Assembly (NCBI RefSeq): GCF_964194155.1
Contig: NC_135895.1
Location: 9,424,001 to 9,488,000 of the forward strand
DNA length: 64,000 bases
Direction of reading: 5' to 3'
From: Cetorhinus maximus
Taxonomy: Eukaryota
Shown: piece by piece, positions 353 to 56,685 of the stretch
How the letters are laid out: every line of letters begins with the position of its first letter
Position numbering within the stretch: the first letter of the stretch is position 1
Notes under the pieces: model-generated
Told to the model about the DNA's origin: nothing
The model's input: the letters and a program-made list of their open reading frames with translations, nothing else
Databases searched by the model: none
Position numbers and translations under genes: made by a program

Positions 353-741
353 ATGGAAAGTGGATTTAACATGTCTAAAAATACCTGCACAAGAGAGTGA
401 ATAGTTTTTCTTTTAACCATTTCTGATTATTGATCATTGTAACTGCGTATGTTATCACTGAGGCAGCGATGGACCTTCTCTGCTATTGAGGCATTGATCA
501 CTGGATATAGCCCAGACAGCAAGGAGCATATGGTATTTTTAAAAAGTCCTTGATAAGTCTGCATGACAGAGTTAATAGACTGATCAACCAGCTTTATAGC
601 TGATGCGCTGTTAACACTGCAGGGATCCTTCATTCAAGACTGGGCAGCAGCCAAGATGAAGATAGAAGGCTCATGCTCCAATCAGAGCAGTGTTTTCCAC
701 AGACATTACAGCAAGGAACAAGCCATTTGACCCAACTGATG

Positions 742-1135
742 GAGACGCAATGGCATAGTGGGAATGTCACTGCACTAAGAACCCAGAGGCCCAGGCTAAT
801 ACTCTGGAGACATGGGTTCAATTCTGACCACGGCGGCTGGCGGAATTTAAATTCAATTCATAAATCTGGAATGAAAGCTAGTGGTCTCAGTAATGGTGAC
901 CATGAAATTCTCATCAGTTGTTGTAAAAACACATCTGCTGCACTAAAGTCCCTTTAGGGAAGGAAATCTGCCACCCTTACCTGTTCTGGCTACATGTGAC
1001 TCCAGACCCACAGCAATGTGGTTGACTCTTAACTGCCCTCTGAAATAACCTACCAAGCCAGTGAATTCAAGGGCAATTAAGGGTGAGGCAATAAATACTG
1101 GTCTTGCCAGTGATGCTCGCATCCCATGAAAGAAG
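742..1135 (+). mobile_element. SINE-B: tRNA-headed non-autonomous element sharing 5' and 3' parts with LINE-B
   Basis: A-box-like tggcatagtgg, B-box-like gggttcaattc, body ggaaggaaatctgcc...gactccagacccacagcaatgtggttgactct, tail caagggcaatta...caataaat...catcccatgaa. Confidence 0.85.
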
Positions 1136-2610: not shown

Positions 2611-3712
2611 AACTGACCAGCATTCCGGCTCTTGACTGCTGTCTGGTGACCTCGACTGGGCATTGCACAAGTGTGCACATTGGTTAAGGGCAGGGTCGGC
2701 TTTGACTCTCCTCGGACTGCCCCTATATTTACAGCCTAGGTGTATGCGCACACAACCACTTTGAACAAAGTAGGTAATAAGGTACTAGCCGAGTTATAAT
2801 ACATGGAGTAGATGTCAACCAGAGAGAAGGCTTCCACTTATGAACAAAAGCCTTGGACCAATGTTCAGGTTAAAAAGGAAACAATTAATTTTAAACTCAA
2901 CGGATCTTGACTGTGGATTTACAATCCCATGGCCACTTAGTGACTGTTGCAAATTATCATCAACAAACCCACAGGTTAACTGCACCGCCCCAAGGCTTCG
3001 AATCTGAATAAAAAGGCCCTTTCGGCCTTCTCGATAAGCAAATGGTGGCCGGAAGGGAGCTCAAAGCCTCTTCTCTATGGTAGCTGTTTTTCAAGCCCCC
3101 TCAGTGCAGGCCGCGCTGTCAAATGCTTTATCACCGGCTGGCAATTGGGTCAGCGAACAGATTAGGATGTTTACATCAGGCACTCATTTGAGAGATAAAT
3201 CTTTTAAACCGCTGAAAGGACCAGGAGTCAGTCGGGACGTGAACGTCTGCCAGGCTAGAGCAAGGGAAATTAAATAAATAGGGAGGGAAATGAAATGCCC
3301 AAAAGTGAAATCAAACAATGCAATTTAATGATGTCCTTGACGTGGTGAGCGGCTCTGTGTAACTTATCAGTTTGTTAGTAAAGGGCAAGCTGCGGTAGAG
3401 TTGACAGCATCCTCCGCAAATGATCCGGCATCACAAGGCAGCACCTGTCATTCCTGAGGAGGGCCACATTTGGAACAATTAGATCATTGTTTCAGTCTGA
3501 CTGTGTAAGCACCAAGCTGCCTTGTCTAATGCCCTGCTCCTACTCCGGCTGTGTGTTGACAGAGGAAGGAAGCATACACTTGGCTTTCAGGGTCTGAATG
3601 ACAACTATCAGCCCCGTGAGTAAGCAAAAGCAGGCTTCTCTTTGTTTCCCCAACCGACTCCCCCACCCTCCACCCCACCCCCAATCTCCCGACATGAATG
3701 CATATGGTTACC

Positions 3713-7789: not shown

Positions 7790-8150
7790 CCAGCGGTGCC
7801 TGGTAACACTCCCGCCTCTGAGTCAGGTGGTCGTGGGTTTGAGTCAAAATCCACAGACTTGAAGCACAAAAATCCAGGCTCACACTCCAGTGCCAGGCCG
7901 AGGGAAACGTCGGAATGCCAGCTGTAAATCTGCTTTCTCAGGCGAATGCTAAAGATCCCTGGCACTGTTTCAAAGAAGAGCAGGGGAGGTATTCTGGGTG
8001 TCCTGGCCAACACTTCCTCCTCAATATTATTGCACTGTGGGGGCTTGCTGTGCGCAAATTGGCTGCCGGTGGCTACTCTTCAAAGTGGTTCGTCGGGGGT
8101 AAAACGCTTTGGGACGTCATGTGGCTGGGAAAGGTGCTACAGTAATGCAC
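7790..8150 (+). mobile_element. SacSINE1-like Deu-SINE
   Basis: Head ggtaacactcccgcctctgagtcag...gggtttgagtc; Deu core aaagatccctggcactgtttcaaagaagagcagggg...gtgtcctggccaa; L2-type tail. Confidence 0.8.
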
Positions 8151-9084
8151 CTTTTACCAGAGAGCTTTAACTTGCTTTGCTGCAAAGGAGCTGATACTAC
8201 AGAGGCTTGTCCGGCTTGCAGCTACCAATGAAAAAGTCAGGACATGTGCGAGGTGAGTAATTTAACACCAGCCGCCTGAACTGATTTTTCTCTCTCTGTG
8301 TTGCCCTCCCCCACCAGCTCCTTTGAGGAATTCATTCAGCTCGACTCATCCTGAATCAAAATGAGTGTGACCAAGCGGGAACAGGAATTAACCTTTGACG
8401 CCAGACTCTGAAGTATTCTTGCCCTCAATTGCTAAAAATACAAATTTAATTAACTTATTGCAACTAATTTCTGTCAGGGTTATTGTTAAAGGTCGCGGCA
8501 GGGTGAAAGGCAGCTTTAAACAACGAAACCCTGATTACCTTGCCTATACTGAATGACTAACTCCGACAGGAATCATTGCCGTGTGGGATCACTCTTCGGG
8601 GCTGGGGTGACATTCCTTTTTAATTAATATCTGCAGCACCATTACCTCCGCACCATTGGGACTTATGTTGCAAAGCAGCGACCCCCACCACTCACCCACC
8701 CACCCACGCCCACCACAGCAACACCCTCCCCCTCCCCCGGCATTACTCTTTACTCCCTTCTTCATTTTATTTCTTTTCTTTTGACCTTTGACAGTAAGGT
8801 GTCTAAAGCTGGTGCCTCAAGAGTGGCGGAACCTGCGCTAGATGCCAAACTGTATGGCGTTAAAGTCCCACCAATGGTTTCATTGGTCAACCATCATAAA
8901 GCTAGTGAGACATCCAGAGAATCAGCCCACGGGGGCAATGAGAGACATCGGGAAGCCCAAGTAACTCCTGTCCCATTACTGTATACGTGAATGGCTGTAT
9001 AGATAGACAGATAGGCCAATAAATAGGGATACATAGATAAAAAGAGATACAATTTTAAATAATACACAGACAGATATGTCGCTA

Positions 9085-9620
9085 AAATCACAGAAACATA
9101 GAAGCAAGAGTAGGCTATTCGGCCCCTCATGTCTGTTCTGCCATTCAATTGGACCGTGGCTGACGTAGAAGTAGGCAAAGTAGACGTGGAGCGGATGTTT
9201 CCCCTTGTGGGGCATTCTAGAACGAGAGGCTATAGTTTTAGGCTAAGGGGTGGTAGATTTAAATCAGAGATGAGGAGGAATCACTTTTCTCAAGGGGTCG
9301 TGAATCTGTGGAATTCACTACCTCAGAGTGCAGTGGATGCCGGGACGCTGAATAAACTTAAGGAGGAGATAGACAGATTTTTAATTAGTAACGGGTTGAA
9401 AGGTTATGGGGAGGGGGCAGGAAATTGGAGTTGAGGCCGAAATGAGATCAGTCATGATCGTATTGATTGGCGGGGCAGGCTCGAGGGGCTGAATTGCCTA
9501 CTCCTGCTCCTAGTTCTTATGTATCTTCTACCTCAATGCCATGTTCTCATACTATCCTCATATCCCTTGGTGTCATTGGTATCTAGAAATCTATCGACCA
9601 CTGCTTTGAGCATACTCAAT
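9085..9620. mobile_element. Nested CR1-A 3' ends: plus-strand copy (~9166-9522) inside a minus-strand copy
   Basis: ORF 9129..9434 MFPLVGHSRTRGYS...RRNHFSQGVVNLWNSLP; the minus-strand tail stops at ...gtggctga and resumes at atcttctacctcaa. Confidence 0.85.
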
Positions 9621-9644: not shown

Positions 9645-12322
9645 CTTAGCTGCACTCGTCCAGGCAAGTGGGGAGTATTCCATCACACTCTTGACTTGTG
9701 CCTTGTAGATGGTGGACAGGCTTTGGGGAGTCAGGAGGTTAGTTACTCGTCGCACTATTCCTAGCCTCTGACCTGTTCTTGTAGCCACAGTATTTATATG
9801 GCTAGTCCAGTTCAGTTTCAGGTCAATTGTAACCCCCAGGATGGTGATAGTGGGGGATTCAGTGATGGTAATGCCATTGAGCATCAAGAGCCAATGATTG
9901 GATTCTCTCTTGTTGGAGATGGCTGTTGTCTGACACTTGTATGGTGCGAATGTTACTTGCCACTTGTCAGCCCAAGCCTGGACATTGTCCAGGTCTTGCT
10001 GCATTTGGACATGGACTGCTTCAGTATTTAAGGAGTCTCGAATGGTGCTGAACATTGTGCAATTATCAGCAAACATCCCCACTTCAGACCTTTTGATGGA
10101 AGGAGGGTCATTGATGATGCAGCTGAAGATGGTTGGACTGAGGACACTACCCTGGGGAACTCCTACAGTGATGTCCTGGAGCTGAGATGTCTGACCTCCA
10201 AAGACCACAACCATCTTAATTTACGCTAGGTATGACTCCAACCAGTGGAACGCTTTCCCCCTGATTCCCATTGACTCCAGTTTTGCTGGGGCTCCTTGAT
10301 GCCACACTCGGTCAAATGCAGCCTTGATGACAAAAGCAGTCACTCTCACCTCACCCCAGGAGTTCAGCTCCGTGGCTGAACCAAGGCTGTAATGAGGTCA
10401 GGAGCTGAGTGACCCTGGCAGAACCCAAACTGAGCATCAGTGAGCAAGTTATTGCTAAGCAAGTGCCGCTTGATAGCACTGTTGATGACCCCTTCCCATA
10501 CTTTACTGATGATCGAGAGTAGACTGATGGGGCGGTAATTGGCCGGGTTCTATTTGTCCTCCTTTTTGTGACAGGACATACTTGGGCAACTTTCCACATT
10601 GCCAGGTAGATGCCAGTGTTGTAGTTGTACTGAAACAGCTTGGCTAGGGGCGTGGCAAGTTCTGGAGCACAAGTCTTTAGTACTATTGTGGAATATTGTC
10701 AGGGCCCATAGCCTTTGCAGTATCCAGTTCTTTCAGCCATTTCTTGATATCACATGGAGTGAATTGGTTTGGCTGAAGACTGGTATCTGTGATGCTGGGG
10801 ACATCCACAGGAGGGCGAGATGGATCATCCACTCGGCACTTCTGGTCTGAAGATGGTAGCAAATGCTTTTAGCCTTATCTTTTGCACTGATGTGCTGGGC
10901 TCCTCTATCATTGAGGATGGGGATATTTGTGGAGCCTCCTCCTCCAGTGAGTTGTTTAATTGCCCACCACCATTTACGACTGGATGTGACAGGACTGCAG
11001 AGCTTAGATCTGTTCCGGTGGTTGTGAGATCGCTTAGCTCTGTCTGTTCACTTGCTGCTTCTGCTGTTTGGCATGCAAGCAGTCCTGAGTTATAGCTTCA
11101 CCAGGTTGACACTTCATTTTTAAGTATGTCTGATGCTGCTCCTGGCATGCCTTCCTACAATTTTCATTGAACCAAGTTTGATTCCCTGGCTTGATGGTAA
11201 TGGTAGAGTGGGGGATATGCTGGGCCATGAGGTTACAGATTGTGGTTGAGTACAATTCTGCTGATGGCCCATAGCACATCATGGATGCCCAGTCTTGAGT
11301 TGCTAGATCTGTTTGAAATTTATCCCATTTAACATGGTGGTAATGCCTTGGAGGGTATCCTCAATGTGAAGGGGGGACTTTGTCTCCACAACAACTGTGC
11401 AGTGGTCACTCCTACCAATACTGTCATGGACATGCATCTGCGGCAGGCGGTTTGGTGTTCTTCCCTCTTGTTGGTTCCCTCGCCACCTGCTGCAGGACCA
11501 GTCTAGCAGCTATGTCATTCAAGACTCAGCCAGTAGTGGTGCGACTGAGCCACTCTTGGTGATGGACTCTGAAGTTCCCCCACCCAGAGTACATTCTGCA
11601 CCCTCGGTGCTTCCTCCAAGTGGTGTTCAACATGGAGATACACTGATTCATCAGCTGAGGGAGGGTAGTATGTGGTAATCAACCAGTTTCCTTGCCCATG
11701 TTTGGCCTGATGCCATGAGACTTCATGCAGTCCACAGTCAATGTTAAGGATTCCCAGAGCAACTTCCTCCTGACTGTATACCACTATACTGCCATCTCTG
11801 CTGGGACACAACACATCCAGGGAGATAGTGATGGTGGTGTCATTCCGTGAGGATGACTATGTCAGGCTGTTGTGAGACAGCTCTCCCAATTTTGGCACTA
11901 GCTCCCAGATGTTAGTAACGAGGACTTTGCAGGGTTGAGATTGCTGTTGTCGTTTCCAGTACCTAGGCCAATGCTGGGTGGCCCATTTGGTTTCATTCCT
12001 TTTTTGTGACTTTGTAGCAGTTTGATACAACTGAGTGGCTTGCTAGGCCATTTCAGAGAGTCAACCACATTGCTGTGGCTCCAGAGTCACATGTAGGCCA
12101 GACCAGGTAAGGTTGGCATATTTCCTTCCCTAAAGGGCATTAATGAACCAGATGGGTTTTTACAACAATGGTTTCATGGTCATCGTCAGACTTTGAATTC
12201 CAGATTTTTATTGAATTCACATTCCACCATACCCTGGCAGGATTCGAACCCACATCCCCAAAGCATTACCCTGGGTCCCTAGATAACTAGTCCAGCGACA
12301 ATACCACTAGGCCATCACCTCC
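9645..12322 (-). mobile_element. LINE-B, 5'-complete but 3'-truncated and decayed: tRNA-like head, AP endonuclease and RT (CR1-group non-LTR retrotransposon)
   Basis: Minus strand: head 12322-12029; APE motifs KVLVTNIWELVPKLGELSH, QPDIVILTE, LITTYYPPSADES; RT GVPQGSVLSPTIFSCIIND, MFADNCT, LGVTIDLKLNWTSHI, IYKAQVKSVMEYS (ORF 9630..10214). Confidence 0.9.
12240..12322 (-). promoter_or_regulatory. tRNA-derived internal Pol III promoter (A and B boxes) at the LINE-B 5' end
   Basis: Minus strand A box tggcctagtgg (12314-12304) and B box ggttcgaatcc (12250-12240); anticodon-like arm ctgga-ctagtta-tctag. Confidence 0.75.
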
Positions 12323-12559
12323 GCTAAATTGGGCCTGTGTCAGCTCTTTGAAAAGCTATCCAATTAGTCCCTATTTCCTGCTACTTCTCCATAACCTTGT
12401 AAATTATTTCCCTTCAAGTCTTCATCCAATTCCTTTTGGAAAGTTCTTGCTAACTTTGCTTCCACTGGCTCTTCAGGCAGTGCATTCCGGATCACACAAG
12501 ATAAAAAAAAATCAGATCACAGGACACTCAGAAACAGATGGAGGATCAGAGGGAGAAAT

Positions 12560-12900: not shown

Positions 12901-13139
12901 CTCACTTAACAAAGGTTACAACATAGTTGGATAAAGGGTTGTACTAAACTACATCGACCAGTAGATCTCAAAGTTCAATTCCTCCTGGTGTTGGTTGCTG
13001 TGTTGAGACAGTATTTATAAGATCTGCCCATGTTCCCTGGACCAGGGAGAGTAAAATGAGCTGAAAACTGCCCATTGACTGCAGCTGTAAAGGGCTGGAT
13101 AGTGGGTGTTAGGAGAGGCCAGCCCTGGGCTTGGGAGGG

Positions 13140-13480
13140 GAGATGGTGGAGTTGTGGTAATATCAGGGTAATCCAGAGGCCCAGGCTAATTCCCTGGGGG
13201 AACATGGGTTCAAATCCCACAATGGGAGCTGGTGCAATTTGAATTCAATGAATAAATCTGGACTATAAACCTAGTCCATGAAATTATTATCATTGCTGTA
13301 CTAATCACTAATGCCCTTTAAGGAAGGAAGGAAATCTGTCGTCCTTATCTGGTCTGGCCTCCATGTGACTCCAGACCCACAGCAATGTGGTTGACTCTTA
13401 GTTGAAATGGCCTAGCAAGCCTTTCAGTTCAAGGGAAATTAGGGATGAGCAACAAAGTGATGTCACAACACATGAAAGAG
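13140..13480 (+). mobile_element. SINE-B
   Basis: B box gggttcaaatccc; junction ggcctagcaagcctttcagtt|caagggaaattagggatg. Confidence 0.88.
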
Positions 13481-27870: not shown

Positions 27871-29534
27871 CCCAAGCTCCTCGGTCATTCAAAAATGGCG
27901 CAAGGCTTGCACTCATAGGCTCATAGATGTTTACTGCACAGAAGGAGGCCATTCGGCCAATCATGTCCATTCCCACCACCCTCTGGGTGAAAAAAAATTC
28001 TCCTCAACTCCCCTCTTAGCCTTCTACCTCTTACCTTAAATCTACGCCTCCTGGTTATTGACCCCTCTACTAATGGAAAAAGTGTCCTCCTATCCACCCT
28101 ATCTATGCCCCTCATAATCTTATACACTTCTATCAGGTCTTCTCTCAACCTTCGCTGCTCCAAGGAAAACAACCCCAGTTTATCCAATCTTTCCTCATAG
28201 CTCAGACCCTCCAGCCCAGGCAGCATCCTGGTAAATCTCCTCTGCTTCCTCTCCAGTGCAATCACATCTTTCCTATAATGTGGTGACCAGAACTGCACAC
28301 AGTGCTCCAGTTGTGGCCTAACCAGCATTTTATACAGTTCCAGCATAACCTCTCTGCTCTTGAATTCTAAGCCTCGGCTAATAAAGGTAAGTATCCCAAA
28401 TGCCTTCTTAACCACCTTATCAACCTGCCCTGCTACCTTCAGGGATCTATTGGATATGCACACCAAGGTCTCTCTGATCTTTAGTACTTTCCAGGGTCCT
28501 ACCATTCATAGTGTAATCCCTTGCCTTGTTAGCCCTCCACAAGTGTATTACCTCACACTTTTCCAGGTTGAATTCCATTTGCCAGTACTCTGCCCACCTG
28601 ACCAATCCATTGATATCCTCCTGGAGCTTACGGCTATCCTCCTCACTATTTACCACCCTACCAATTTTTGTGTCATCCGCGAACTTCTTGATCACACCCC
28701 GTACGTTTAAGTCCAAATCATTTATGTACACCACAAACAGCAAGGGCCCCAGCACTGAGCCCTGTGGAACCCCACTGGAAACAGACTTTCAGTCACAGAA
28801 ACATCCCTCTACCATCACCCTCTGCTTCCTGCCTCTCAGCCAATTTTGGATCCGTCGTGCTGCTTTGCCTTGGATCCCATGGGCTCTTACTTTCTTGACC
28901 AGTCTGCCATGAGGGACCTTATCTAAAGCCTTGTTAAAGTCAATGTAGATCACATCAAATGCATTACCTTCATCCACACTCCTAGTTACCTCCTCAAAAA
29001 ATTCGATCAAATTTGTCAAACACGACCTTCCCTTAACAAATCCATGCTGACTGTCCCTGATTTATCCTTGTCTCTCCAAGTGCAGATATATTCTGTCCCT
29101 CAGAATTCTTTCTATTAACTTCCCTACCACCGAGGTTAGACTGCCTGGCCTGTAATTTCCTGGTCTATCCCTTCCTCCCTTTTTTAATAATGGGACAACG
29201 TTAGCAGTCCTCCAGTCCTCTGGCACCTCACCTGTGGCCAGAGAGGAGTAGAATATTACCACCAGGGCCCATGATATTTCTTCCCTTGCCTCCCTCAACA
29301 GCTTGAGATACATCTCATCTGGGCCTGCAGATTTATCCACTTCTAAGGCTGCTAAACCCATTAGTACCTCTTCTCTCTCTATGTTAATTTCCTCTAACAT
29401 TTCACAGTCCTCCACCCTGATGTCTATACCTTCATCATCCTTTTCCATTGTGAAGACCGACGCAAAGTATTCATTGAGGACTGCACCCATGTCTTCCGGG
29501 TCGACACACTCTGACCTAATTGGCCCTACTCTTT

Positions 29535-44166: not shown

Positions 44167-45185
44167 AGGCTGGATTTTACAGGTTCAAGCGGGATATGGG
44201 AGGCGGAATGGGAAGTGAGTGGTCCGCTCACTCCCTCCCCACCATCAGTAAAAGGGAGGCAGTGACGGTGGTATTGTCACTGGACTAGTATTCCAGAGAC
44301 CCAGGGTAATGCTCTGGGCACCTGGGTTTGAACACCACCATAGCAGCTGGTGAAATTTGAATTCAATAAAAATATGGAATTAAAAGTCTGATGATGATGA
44401 CCATGAAACCATTGTCGTAAAAACCCACCTGGTTCACTAATATCCTTTAGGGAAGGAAATCTCCTGTTCTGGCCTACATGTGACTCCAGGCCCACAGCAA
44501 TGGGGTTGACTCATAAATGCCCTCTGAGCAAAGGCAATTATGGATGGGCAATAAATGCTGGCCAAGCCAGCGAAGCTGAATTTAAAAAAGCATGGCAAGC
44601 CAAGTGTTGGGCACACAATTAGCAGCTTCCTAGTTTTACATTGGGAAGTGGGGGGTGGGGGACTTCATGCCCAACCGGGTGTCTAGGCTGGGACATCTGG
44701 CGGGAGAGAAGTGGAAGTCAGTCACGGCCACCAATTTAAAGGCCCCGATCTCTCACTCTCTCCTTATTTGTTATGGCAGCCTAAAAACTGTAAAGAAATA
44801 AAGCTGAATTACATCCAAACACTGCCATCTTCGCCAGCAGAAGCTACTGCTCCCTGCCACCACGGTCCCATTGGCAGGCCTTTCCTTCTGCCCTTGCCTC
44901 ATACCTGGCATAAATGACTCCCCAACTCCTCCCCGTCCGAGGCCCAATAAATGCAGTGGGCAAAGAAAAATTGCCAACAGTTGGCTCTTTAAGAAGCTCA
45001 ATAGCTTGTTAATTGGCTGTGCCAAAATGACAGGTGGGCCACCAATTTCGGCATCCGCTCACCTTCCGTATTATCGGAGCCTGGTGGCATGGCGTCAGAT
45101 TGCCAACCGGACATCATCACGCCATATTTTACAGAAGCGCCCGGGGTGGTGGCATGCCTGATGTACGTCCGTAAAATCCAGTCCC
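44167..45185. mobile_element. Harbinger-like MITE carrying a SINE-B insertion
   Basis: TIRs aggctggattttac / gtaaaatccagtccc. Confidence 0.72.
44262..44590 (+). mobile_element. SINE-B (short-junction variant)
   Basis: Head gtggtattgtcactggactagtattccag...gggtttgaacacc; junction gccctctgag|caaaggcaattatggatggg. Confidence 0.88.
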
Positions 45186-55599: not shown

Positions 55600-56685
55600 A
55601 CCTCGGGAGGTTTCTGATCATCACAGATGCCAGTCTTCAGCCTATTCAATTCACTCCATGTGATATCAAGAAATGGCTGAAGGCACTGGATATTGCAAGG
55701 CTATGGGCCCTGACAATATTCCGGCAATAGTACTGGAGATGTGCTCCAGAACTTGCTGCGCCTTTGGCCAAGCTGTCCCAGTACGGTTAGAACACTATGG
55801 GGAAGGTGGTGGCGTAGTGGTATTGTCACTGAACTAGTATCCCAGGGACCCAGGATAATGCTCTGGGAATGCTGGTTCAAATCCCACCATGGCAGATGGG
55901 GTGAAATTAGAATCAATTAAAACCTGGAATTAAAAGTCTGATGGTGACCATTGCTGACTGCCATAAAAAGCTATCTGGTCCACTAGTGTCCTTACCTGGT
56001 CTGGTCTGACTGTGACTCCAGACCCACAGCAATGTGGTTGACCCTTAAATGCTCAAATGCTCTCTGAACAAGGACAATTAAGGATGGACAATAAATGCTA
56101 GCCTAACCAGTGATGCCTACATCCCATGAATGCATAGGAAAAAATCTACCTGGCAATGTGAAAAGTTGTCCTGTACACAAAAAGCAGGGCAAATCCAACC
56201 CTGGCCAATTACTGTCCCATCAGTCTACTCTCAATCATCAGTAAGGGGTCATCAACAATGCAATCAAGTGTCATTTGCTTAGCAGAATTCTGCTCACTGA
56301 TGCTCAGTTTGGGTTCTGCCAAGGTCACTCACCTTCTGACCTCACTCATTATATCCTTGATTCAAAGATGGACAAAAGGGCTGAAGTCCAAAGGCGAGAG
56401 TGACTGCCCTTGACATCAAACCAGTACCATCTTGAAGGACAAGGGTAGCAGATAGATGGGAACACCACCACCTGGAAGTTCCTCTCCAAGGCATTCACCA
56501 TCCTGACTTGGAAATATATCACTGTCACTGGGTCAAAATCCTGGAACTCCCTCCCTAATGGCACTGTGGGTGTACCTACACCACATGGCCTACAGTGGTT
56601 CAAGAAGATGGCTCACCACCAAGGACTATGAGCGACGGGCAATAAATGCTGGCCTAGCCACTGATGCCTACATCCCATGAGCTAA
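55600..56685 (+). mobile_element. LINE-B RT and 3' fragments interrupted by a SINE-B (55798-56135)
   Basis: aaggctatgggccctgacaatattccggcaatagtactg (KA.GPDNIPA.VL); resumes at atctacctggcaatgtg; 3' end at 56420-56685. Confidence 0.85.
55798..56135 (+). mobile_element. SINE-B (short-junction variant)
   Basis: A box tggcgtagtgg, B box ggttcaaatcc; junction ctctctgaa|caaggacaattaaggatgg. Confidence 0.88.

Follow-up and report, generated by a model that had tools for sequence, protein, structure and literature searches.

How does a LINE come to begin with what looks like the internal promoter of a tRNA gene, and which RNA polymerase would then transcribe it? RNA polymerase III is normally reserved for short non-coding RNAs, and a run of at least four T residues on the non-template strand is its terminator in vertebrates. 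The working rule, as given in the passages of PMC10886601 on which we draw, is that LINEs depend on RNA polymerase II for their transcription and SINEs on RNA polymerase III. The element considered here lies on the minus strand of the window (by which we mean the entire 64,000-nucleotide stretch of basking shark DNA that was analysed), where a tRNA-like head beginning at about 12324 opens a decayed and frameshifted LINE copy with the following features:

12229..12324, minus strand: tRNA-derived head closest to tRNA-Ser(AGA), spanning family positions 1 to ~95 (sequence; tRNA comparison, z=8.0; weak Rfam tRNA match in copy L036)
12304..12314, minus strand: A box (sequence; column tallies over copies)
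12240..12250, minus strand: B box (sequence; column tallies)
12029..12228, minus strand: body of ~200 bp common to the LINE and the SINEs (sequence comparison)
11898..11996, minus strand: short AUG-initiated frame, 32 codons in the window copy and 35 in the family, overlapping the endonuclease start in a different frame
11390..11919, minus strand: AP endonuclease domain, broken by frameshift in the window copy (Exo_endo_phos_2 match in copy L036)
9648..11389, minus strand: linker, then reverse transcriptase (about 10560-9825), then a portion of the C-terminal region (sequence, Pfam)

The initial annotation had described a tRNA-like head with both boxes on this strand, and these indeed lie at 12314-12304 and 12250-12240. 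It had also seen the head and body run on into AP-endonuclease motifs some 100 bp later and then into a reverse transcriptase; in agreement with this, the junction between body and LINE falls at 12029|12028, VTNIW begins 109 nt further on at 11919, and Pfam RVT_1 matches at 10196-9825. The QPDIVILTE motif sits one frame over from VTNIW because the window copy is frameshifted. The head and body, which it had called identical in layout to the SINE-B copies, are not identical to the neighbouring SINEs in sequence: the window contains four such copies that are full, and they match the head and body of the LINE at 72-81%. The copy stops at 9648, which is family position 2818 of 3283, and the last ~465 nt, including the tail, are gone. 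Adjoining this truncated 3' end, at 9179-9521, is another kind of repeat, present about nine times in the window, which looks like a canonical CR1 3' end.

The arrangement is by no means peculiar to this locus. A 261-nt query across the junction gave 7,193 candidates in the genome, and all of the 40 that were scored span the junction, 39 of them outside the window and with 84-87% identity. An exact 23-mer at the junction occurs 3,542 times (its reversed control, 0), and since the copies deviate by about 6-9% from the column majority, we infer that the true copy number is several times higher. Twenty fetched copies have sharp common ends ~3.28 kb apart. To characterise the 5' end, 58 loci were chosen without using the head, namely the 29 top-ranked by endonuclease DNA and the 29 top-ranked by the protein of the reverse transcriptase region: 27 of these begin at nt 1-5, and the starts of the rest fall in the head or body (12), the leader (7) or the ORF (12). 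The full-length copies have a single, sharp common start ~10 nt ahead of the A box; the 31 truncated copies have scattered breaks with no common sequence at the break, although one pair shares 56 nt elsewhere. Among these 58 loci, picked by endonuclease or reverse transcriptase, there was no alternative 5' end, no other 5' UTR and no ORF1. The genome-wide junction and the shared 5' start support the earlier proposal of an autonomous, single-ORF retrotransposon with a tRNA-derived 5' end.

The column majority of the family is 3,283 nt long and holds one frame of ~975 codons, broken solely where copies are divided between CGA and TGA in a column (CpG-type TGA). The frame extends into the tail, which consists of a stem-loop followed by a short A-rich run. 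When target-site duplications were looked for, a match of 5-8 nt turned up at 5 of 11 full-length copies, no more than a loose search would yield. Viral contigs contained no relative. Contigs of four presumed RNA runs cover the stretch; contigs cannot reveal start, strand or polymerase. LINE protein fragments also occur fused into predicted shark gene models, anoctamin-7-like and FERM domain 7-like among others (P0007, P0009, P0042 and P0059), and these fusions are probably annotation artefacts.

The initial annotation could not say whether the element was already catalogued. As a family it is: this is the elasmobranch Zenon of PMC13343379, with which it shares a single APE-RT ORF, the lack of an ORF1 and an A tail. 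The first 400 nt match CarCar_Zenon-1 by eye, head, body and junction included, and the lengths are 3,283 and 3,288 nt. Within the first 400 letters, again by eye, the head opens all seven elasmobranch consensus rows (CarCar_Zenon-1, RhiTyp, ScyCan, HypSab and SquAca_Zenon-1/2/3), which come from five species including a ray and the dogfish; three hagfish and coelacanth Zenon rows have no head there and do contain runs of at least four T. Intact ORFs are few according to PMC13343379, with 3 of 612 in stingray and 1 of 1,419 in whale shark, the species in which expression would be likeliest. What PMC13343379 does not report is a tRNA head, a Pol III signature, a SINE partner or an offset AUG frame: "tRNA" appears 0 times in its text and supplement, and "polymerase" 0 times in its text. 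Our literature search met with no description of a tRNA-headed or Pol III-transcribed autonomous LINE, and neither the tRNA head on an autonomous element, nor the T-run avoidance, nor the derived SINEs were found in print; Repbase and Dfam, which lay beyond its scope, might note the head.

The single ORF for AP endonuclease and reverse transcriptase that marks a Zenon is present, with Pfam matches to both domains in natural copies, and short A-rich tails are seen in other copies, that of the window copy being lost. A canonical vertebrate CR1 it is not, since it has no ORF1 and a reverse transcriptase that is 32% identical to that of the genome's CR1 and placed apart from it. In a quick reverse transcriptase tree, which contained no named Zenon, the element clusters with 20 mostly unnamed proteins (one from amphioxus, one from a moth; SH-aLRT 97), away from the genome's CR1. 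The absence of ORF1, to which the initial annotation had drawn attention, is real: the 436 nt between the element's start and the endonuclease motif hold only the 35-codon frame. It is nevertheless not the surprise, because the Zenon clade always lacks an ORF1, whether the head is present or absent; and because Zenons without a head lack it too, the loss of ORF1 is independent of the head, a point that we count against the Pol III reading.

The head itself is a degenerate likeness of a tRNA. Among 24 unique tRNAs (10 anticodon types) of the same genome its best match is tRNA-Ser(AGA), with z=8.0, an isotype that is tentative because a Ser motif served as the seed for the tRNA set, from which many isotypes are missing. 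The Rfam tRNA model matches the head in one of three loci, at 20.8 bits against a cut-off of 29, and ARAGORN called 0 tRNA genes in the window. Likely, the head was first acquired from an older SINE by a template switch. A second plausible route is suggested by analogy with the mammalian tRNA/LINE-1 chimeric insertions (PMC13174262, drawn on in part), in which a small RNA is fused at the RNA level to the 5' end of a LINE; those are one-off events at 21 loci, mostly with antisense tRNA halves, unlike the amplified Zenon family. Elsewhere in the genome, one tRNA-Ser 3' motif recurs exactly about 50 times in a dispersed cluster of tRNA genes (G000:C24:38-64 Mb).

If RNA polymerase III reads through 3.3 kb, one would expect a lack of T-runs that is limited to the sense strand, and the sense strand of this family does avoid them. 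In the column majority there are 0 TTTT where 4.3 are expected (P 0.0085) and 6 TTT where 21.5 are expected, with A-runs at normal levels (14 AAAA against 14.7 expected); an independent copy set reproduced the results for both T-runs and A-runs. When the synonymous codons of the ORF are permuted, TTT is observed 4 times against 12.8 expected, a count as low being reached in 0 of 2000 shuffles, and TTTT 0 times against 2.1 (P 0.09). The deficit is less marked when shuffling preserves dinucleotides, TTT then giving P 0.03 and TTTT P 0.2; the TT dinucleotide is depleted overall (ratio 0.69), and codons prefer to end in C. Natural copies carry TTTT at 0.21/kb (29 copies) and 0.34/kb (20 copies), compared with 4.03/kb in 29 CR1 copies of similar age, whose T content is 23% against 21-22% in the Zenon copies and whose use of Pol II is assumed. 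No TTTT at all is found in 26 of the 49 natural Zenon copies, as against 0 of the 29 CR1 copies, and the genome's CR1, processed alike, has 13 TTTT in 2,878 nt. A canonical CR1 ORF2 fragment of this control family lies in the window at 27921-29532 (minus strand) and contains more TTTT than its base shuffles do.

As a wider control we took 80 metagenome LINE loci, 54 of them with a frame of at least 450 codons. TTTT is present in 54/54 of these ORFs, and their observed/expected ratios for TTT are 0.66-1.72 as compared with 0.22 in the Zenon family, the control ORFs being distant (26-42% identity) and mostly richer in T (22-37%). Among the matches listed in regex and relaxed ARAGORN searches of these LINEs, none showed an A box paired with a B box upstream of any of the 54 ORFs, and the relaxed ARAGORN tRNA calls looked like noise. 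Phe, both codons of which begin with TT, makes up 1.8% of the Zenon protein; its share ranges over 2.3-7.3% among 51 homologues between 850 and 1,200 aa long, two of which (P0067 and P0220, both close and unnamed) are nearly as Phe-poor at 2.3% and 2.5%, and TTA accounts for 0 of 88 Leu codons.

Because a tRNA-derived head is combined with T-run avoidance on the coding strand, transcription by RNA polymerase III is the likely explanation, and we would give a probability of about 0.7 to the reading that this is an autonomous 3.28-kb single-ORF Zenon LINE with a tRNA-derived A/B-box head that is transcribed by that enzyme from end to end. We also count in its favour that the same head drives SINEs of high copy number. 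The more elaborate proposition, that such a Pol III-transcribed coding retrotransposon has been kept across sharks and rays, purged of terminators, translated by a cap-free recoding mechanism and has repeatedly spawned SINEs by internal deletion, has perhaps slightly better than an even chance of being correct. According to this scheme, TFIIIC would bind the internal boxes, with the result that each full-length insertion would carry its own promoter. Selection would have removed the TTTT terminators, at a cost in Phe and TTA codons, allowing Pol III to read 3.3 kb, and the resulting RNA would be without a normal cap. The enzyme translated from it would recognise the stem-loop tail at the 3' end and achieve insertion of the element by target-primed reverse transcription, with no ORF1; in the L1/Alu system, as described in part of PMC2666806, Pol III transcripts are retrotransposed without ORF1p. 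Internal deletions that keep the head and the tail would then give ready-made SINEs, likely on at least two occasions.

The weakest step is how translation, likely begun at the AUG at family position 348, would pass into the frame of the endonuclease, whether through re-initiation or a -1 shift. Ahead of residue 290 there is no Met in the long frame, and this, together with the need to translate an uncapped RNA, we count against the Pol III reading. AUG-348 is intact in 28/34 copies and opens the 35-codon frame that overlaps the endonuclease start; this frame has a coding-like base use, its offset to the endonuclease frame is kept in 30/34 copies, and the AUG is found in the consensuses of all five species, the stingray row having the same offset by eye. 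The likely route is a -1 shift ahead of the conserved TNI motif or else re-initiation, and no clear slippery site for such a shift was identified. A start at the TTG of the junction can be set aside, as TAA follows it in many copies and its frame varies between species (by eye).

The alternative that survives best, unlikely as we judge it, is that the head is a genuine part of the LINE and that RNA polymerase II makes the coding RNA, either from a cryptic promoter in the head or the body or by read-through; the boxes would then persist solely through exchange of 5' ends between LINE and SINEs, and the loss of T-runs would be a by-product of a codon bias for C over T. The TT ratio of 0.69, the preference for C-ending codons and the weak significance under dinucleotide control all lend themselves to this explanation, and these we count against the Pol III reading along with the distance and T-richness of the control ORFs and the Phe-poor homologues. 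Nevertheless, the TTT deficit persists under codon permutation, which preserves codon bias; it concerns sense-strand T alone and is absent from CR1 and from the 54 other ORFs. An AATAAA 45 nt upstream of the 3' end could serve Pol II, but another occurs at position 115, inside the 5' region. PMC10886601 describes LINE RNAs as products of Pol II, and a capped RNA would be easy to translate; the sharp start of full-length copies ahead of the A box argues the other way.

Doubtful to a greater degree is a mixed use of polymerases, in which Pol III makes the template that is reverse transcribed and the protein comes from copies read through by Pol II, the element being autonomous only collectively. 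This would account for the sharp start and the T-run avoidance with no need of cap-independent translation, and the genome offers tens of thousands of copies for such read-through, many of those in the whale shark being intronic according to part of 10.1101/443036. An enzyme supplied in trans would, however, relax selection on the ORF, and yet the column majority keeps an open frame of ~975 codons; moreover, the 12 ATGs listed upstream of position 348 would hinder scanning of a capped read-through RNA. Finally, a single-locus accident, in which a SINE, its tail since lost, had landed next to a 5'-truncated LINE, has virtually no probability left: a SINE of the same kind does lie 800 bp away, but the 3,542 exact junctions, the like consensuses of five species and the lack of any alternative 5' end among the 58 loci rule it out.

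Should the Pol III reading be true, a LINE with a SINE-type promoter would be a natural and long-lived Pol III messenger RNA, its coding sequence shaped by terminator avoidance, and would offer in one element a means of testing the translation of uncapped Pol III RNA, whether the need for ORF1 goes with the polymerase, and the origin of SINE heads and bodies. Depletion of T-runs would also serve as a simple screen of repeat libraries for further LINEs of this kind. Non-SINE retroelements with a Pol III promoter derived from a small RNA are already represented by Cassandra, Helenus and Ajax (TRIMp3), but these, in the relevant part of PMC10886601, are LTR elements that are non-autonomous, measure 0.3-1.3 kb and lack a coding frame, unlike the Zenon LINE.

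The 5' end of the LINE joined to its own tail makes up the SINEs of the window, each identified by sequence:

741..1134, plus strand: type-1 SINE, LINE 5' end joined to LINE tail
13137..13470, plus strand: type-1 SINE, ~800 bp from the LINE and on the opposite strand
44251..44600, plus strand: type-2 SINE
55800..56135, plus strand: type-2 SINE within another copy of the LINE

In type 1, family position 315 is joined to tail position 3216-3217, and the tail is present in 25/30 loci; 3,312 exact junctions of this type occur in the genome. In type 2, position about 292 is joined to about 3217 (25/25 loci). Type 1 departs from the LINE at 12029 and type 2 about 23 family positions earlier. Upstream of the junction, 17 diagnostic columns group the LINE with type 2 and 3 group it with type 1, and at 0 do the SINEs stand jointly against the LINE; type 1 resembles, by eye, the 5' end of dogfish Zenon. 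The head tree is poorly resolved save for the split of the type-1 SINEs. The simplest reading of these sequences is that the headed LINE, in the course of its evolution, gave rise to SINEs at least twice, the alternative being that LINE and SINE have swapped 5' ends.

Several known systems resemble parts of this arrangement, judging from portions of the papers cited. The tRNA-derived SINEs of class SINE2 (for example SacSINE1 of sharks, the CmiSINEs of PMC5499810, and HE1) have, like the LINE, a tRNA head with A and B boxes, a body, and a tail shared with a partner LINE; they are short and non-coding, as are the two derivatives here, and share the tail alone, whereas here it is a 3.28-kb APE-RT LINE that bears the head (boxes present, Rfam match weak, ARAGORN negative) and the body. 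Persaeus, an internally deleted derivative of a lepidopteran Zenon, is short and combines the 5' and 3' ends of its Zenon as the shark SINEs do; in the portion of PMC6740152 consulted, however, neither it nor its Zenon has tRNA homology or a Pol III promoter, while the shark deletion product is a tRNA-headed SINE. In the bipartite SINEs derived from RTE and Vingi elements the body is related to the 5' region of the LINE and the tail comes from the same LINE, as here, but the tRNA head was added to a non-autonomous piece and not, as here, to an autonomous element (PMC5786205).

The type-2 SINE at 55800..56135 lies within a LINE copy at 55601-56680 (plus strand), at family position 1843/1847 and with no clear duplication, and since it is inserted inside that copy it must be younger than its host. 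At 7843-8170 (plus strand) the window also holds what we take to resemble a Deu-domain SINE. Elsewhere in the genome two identical-looking SINE loci (L160 and L161, G000:C15:56.69-56.70 Mb) lie 7.2 kb apart and are probably a tandem duplication.
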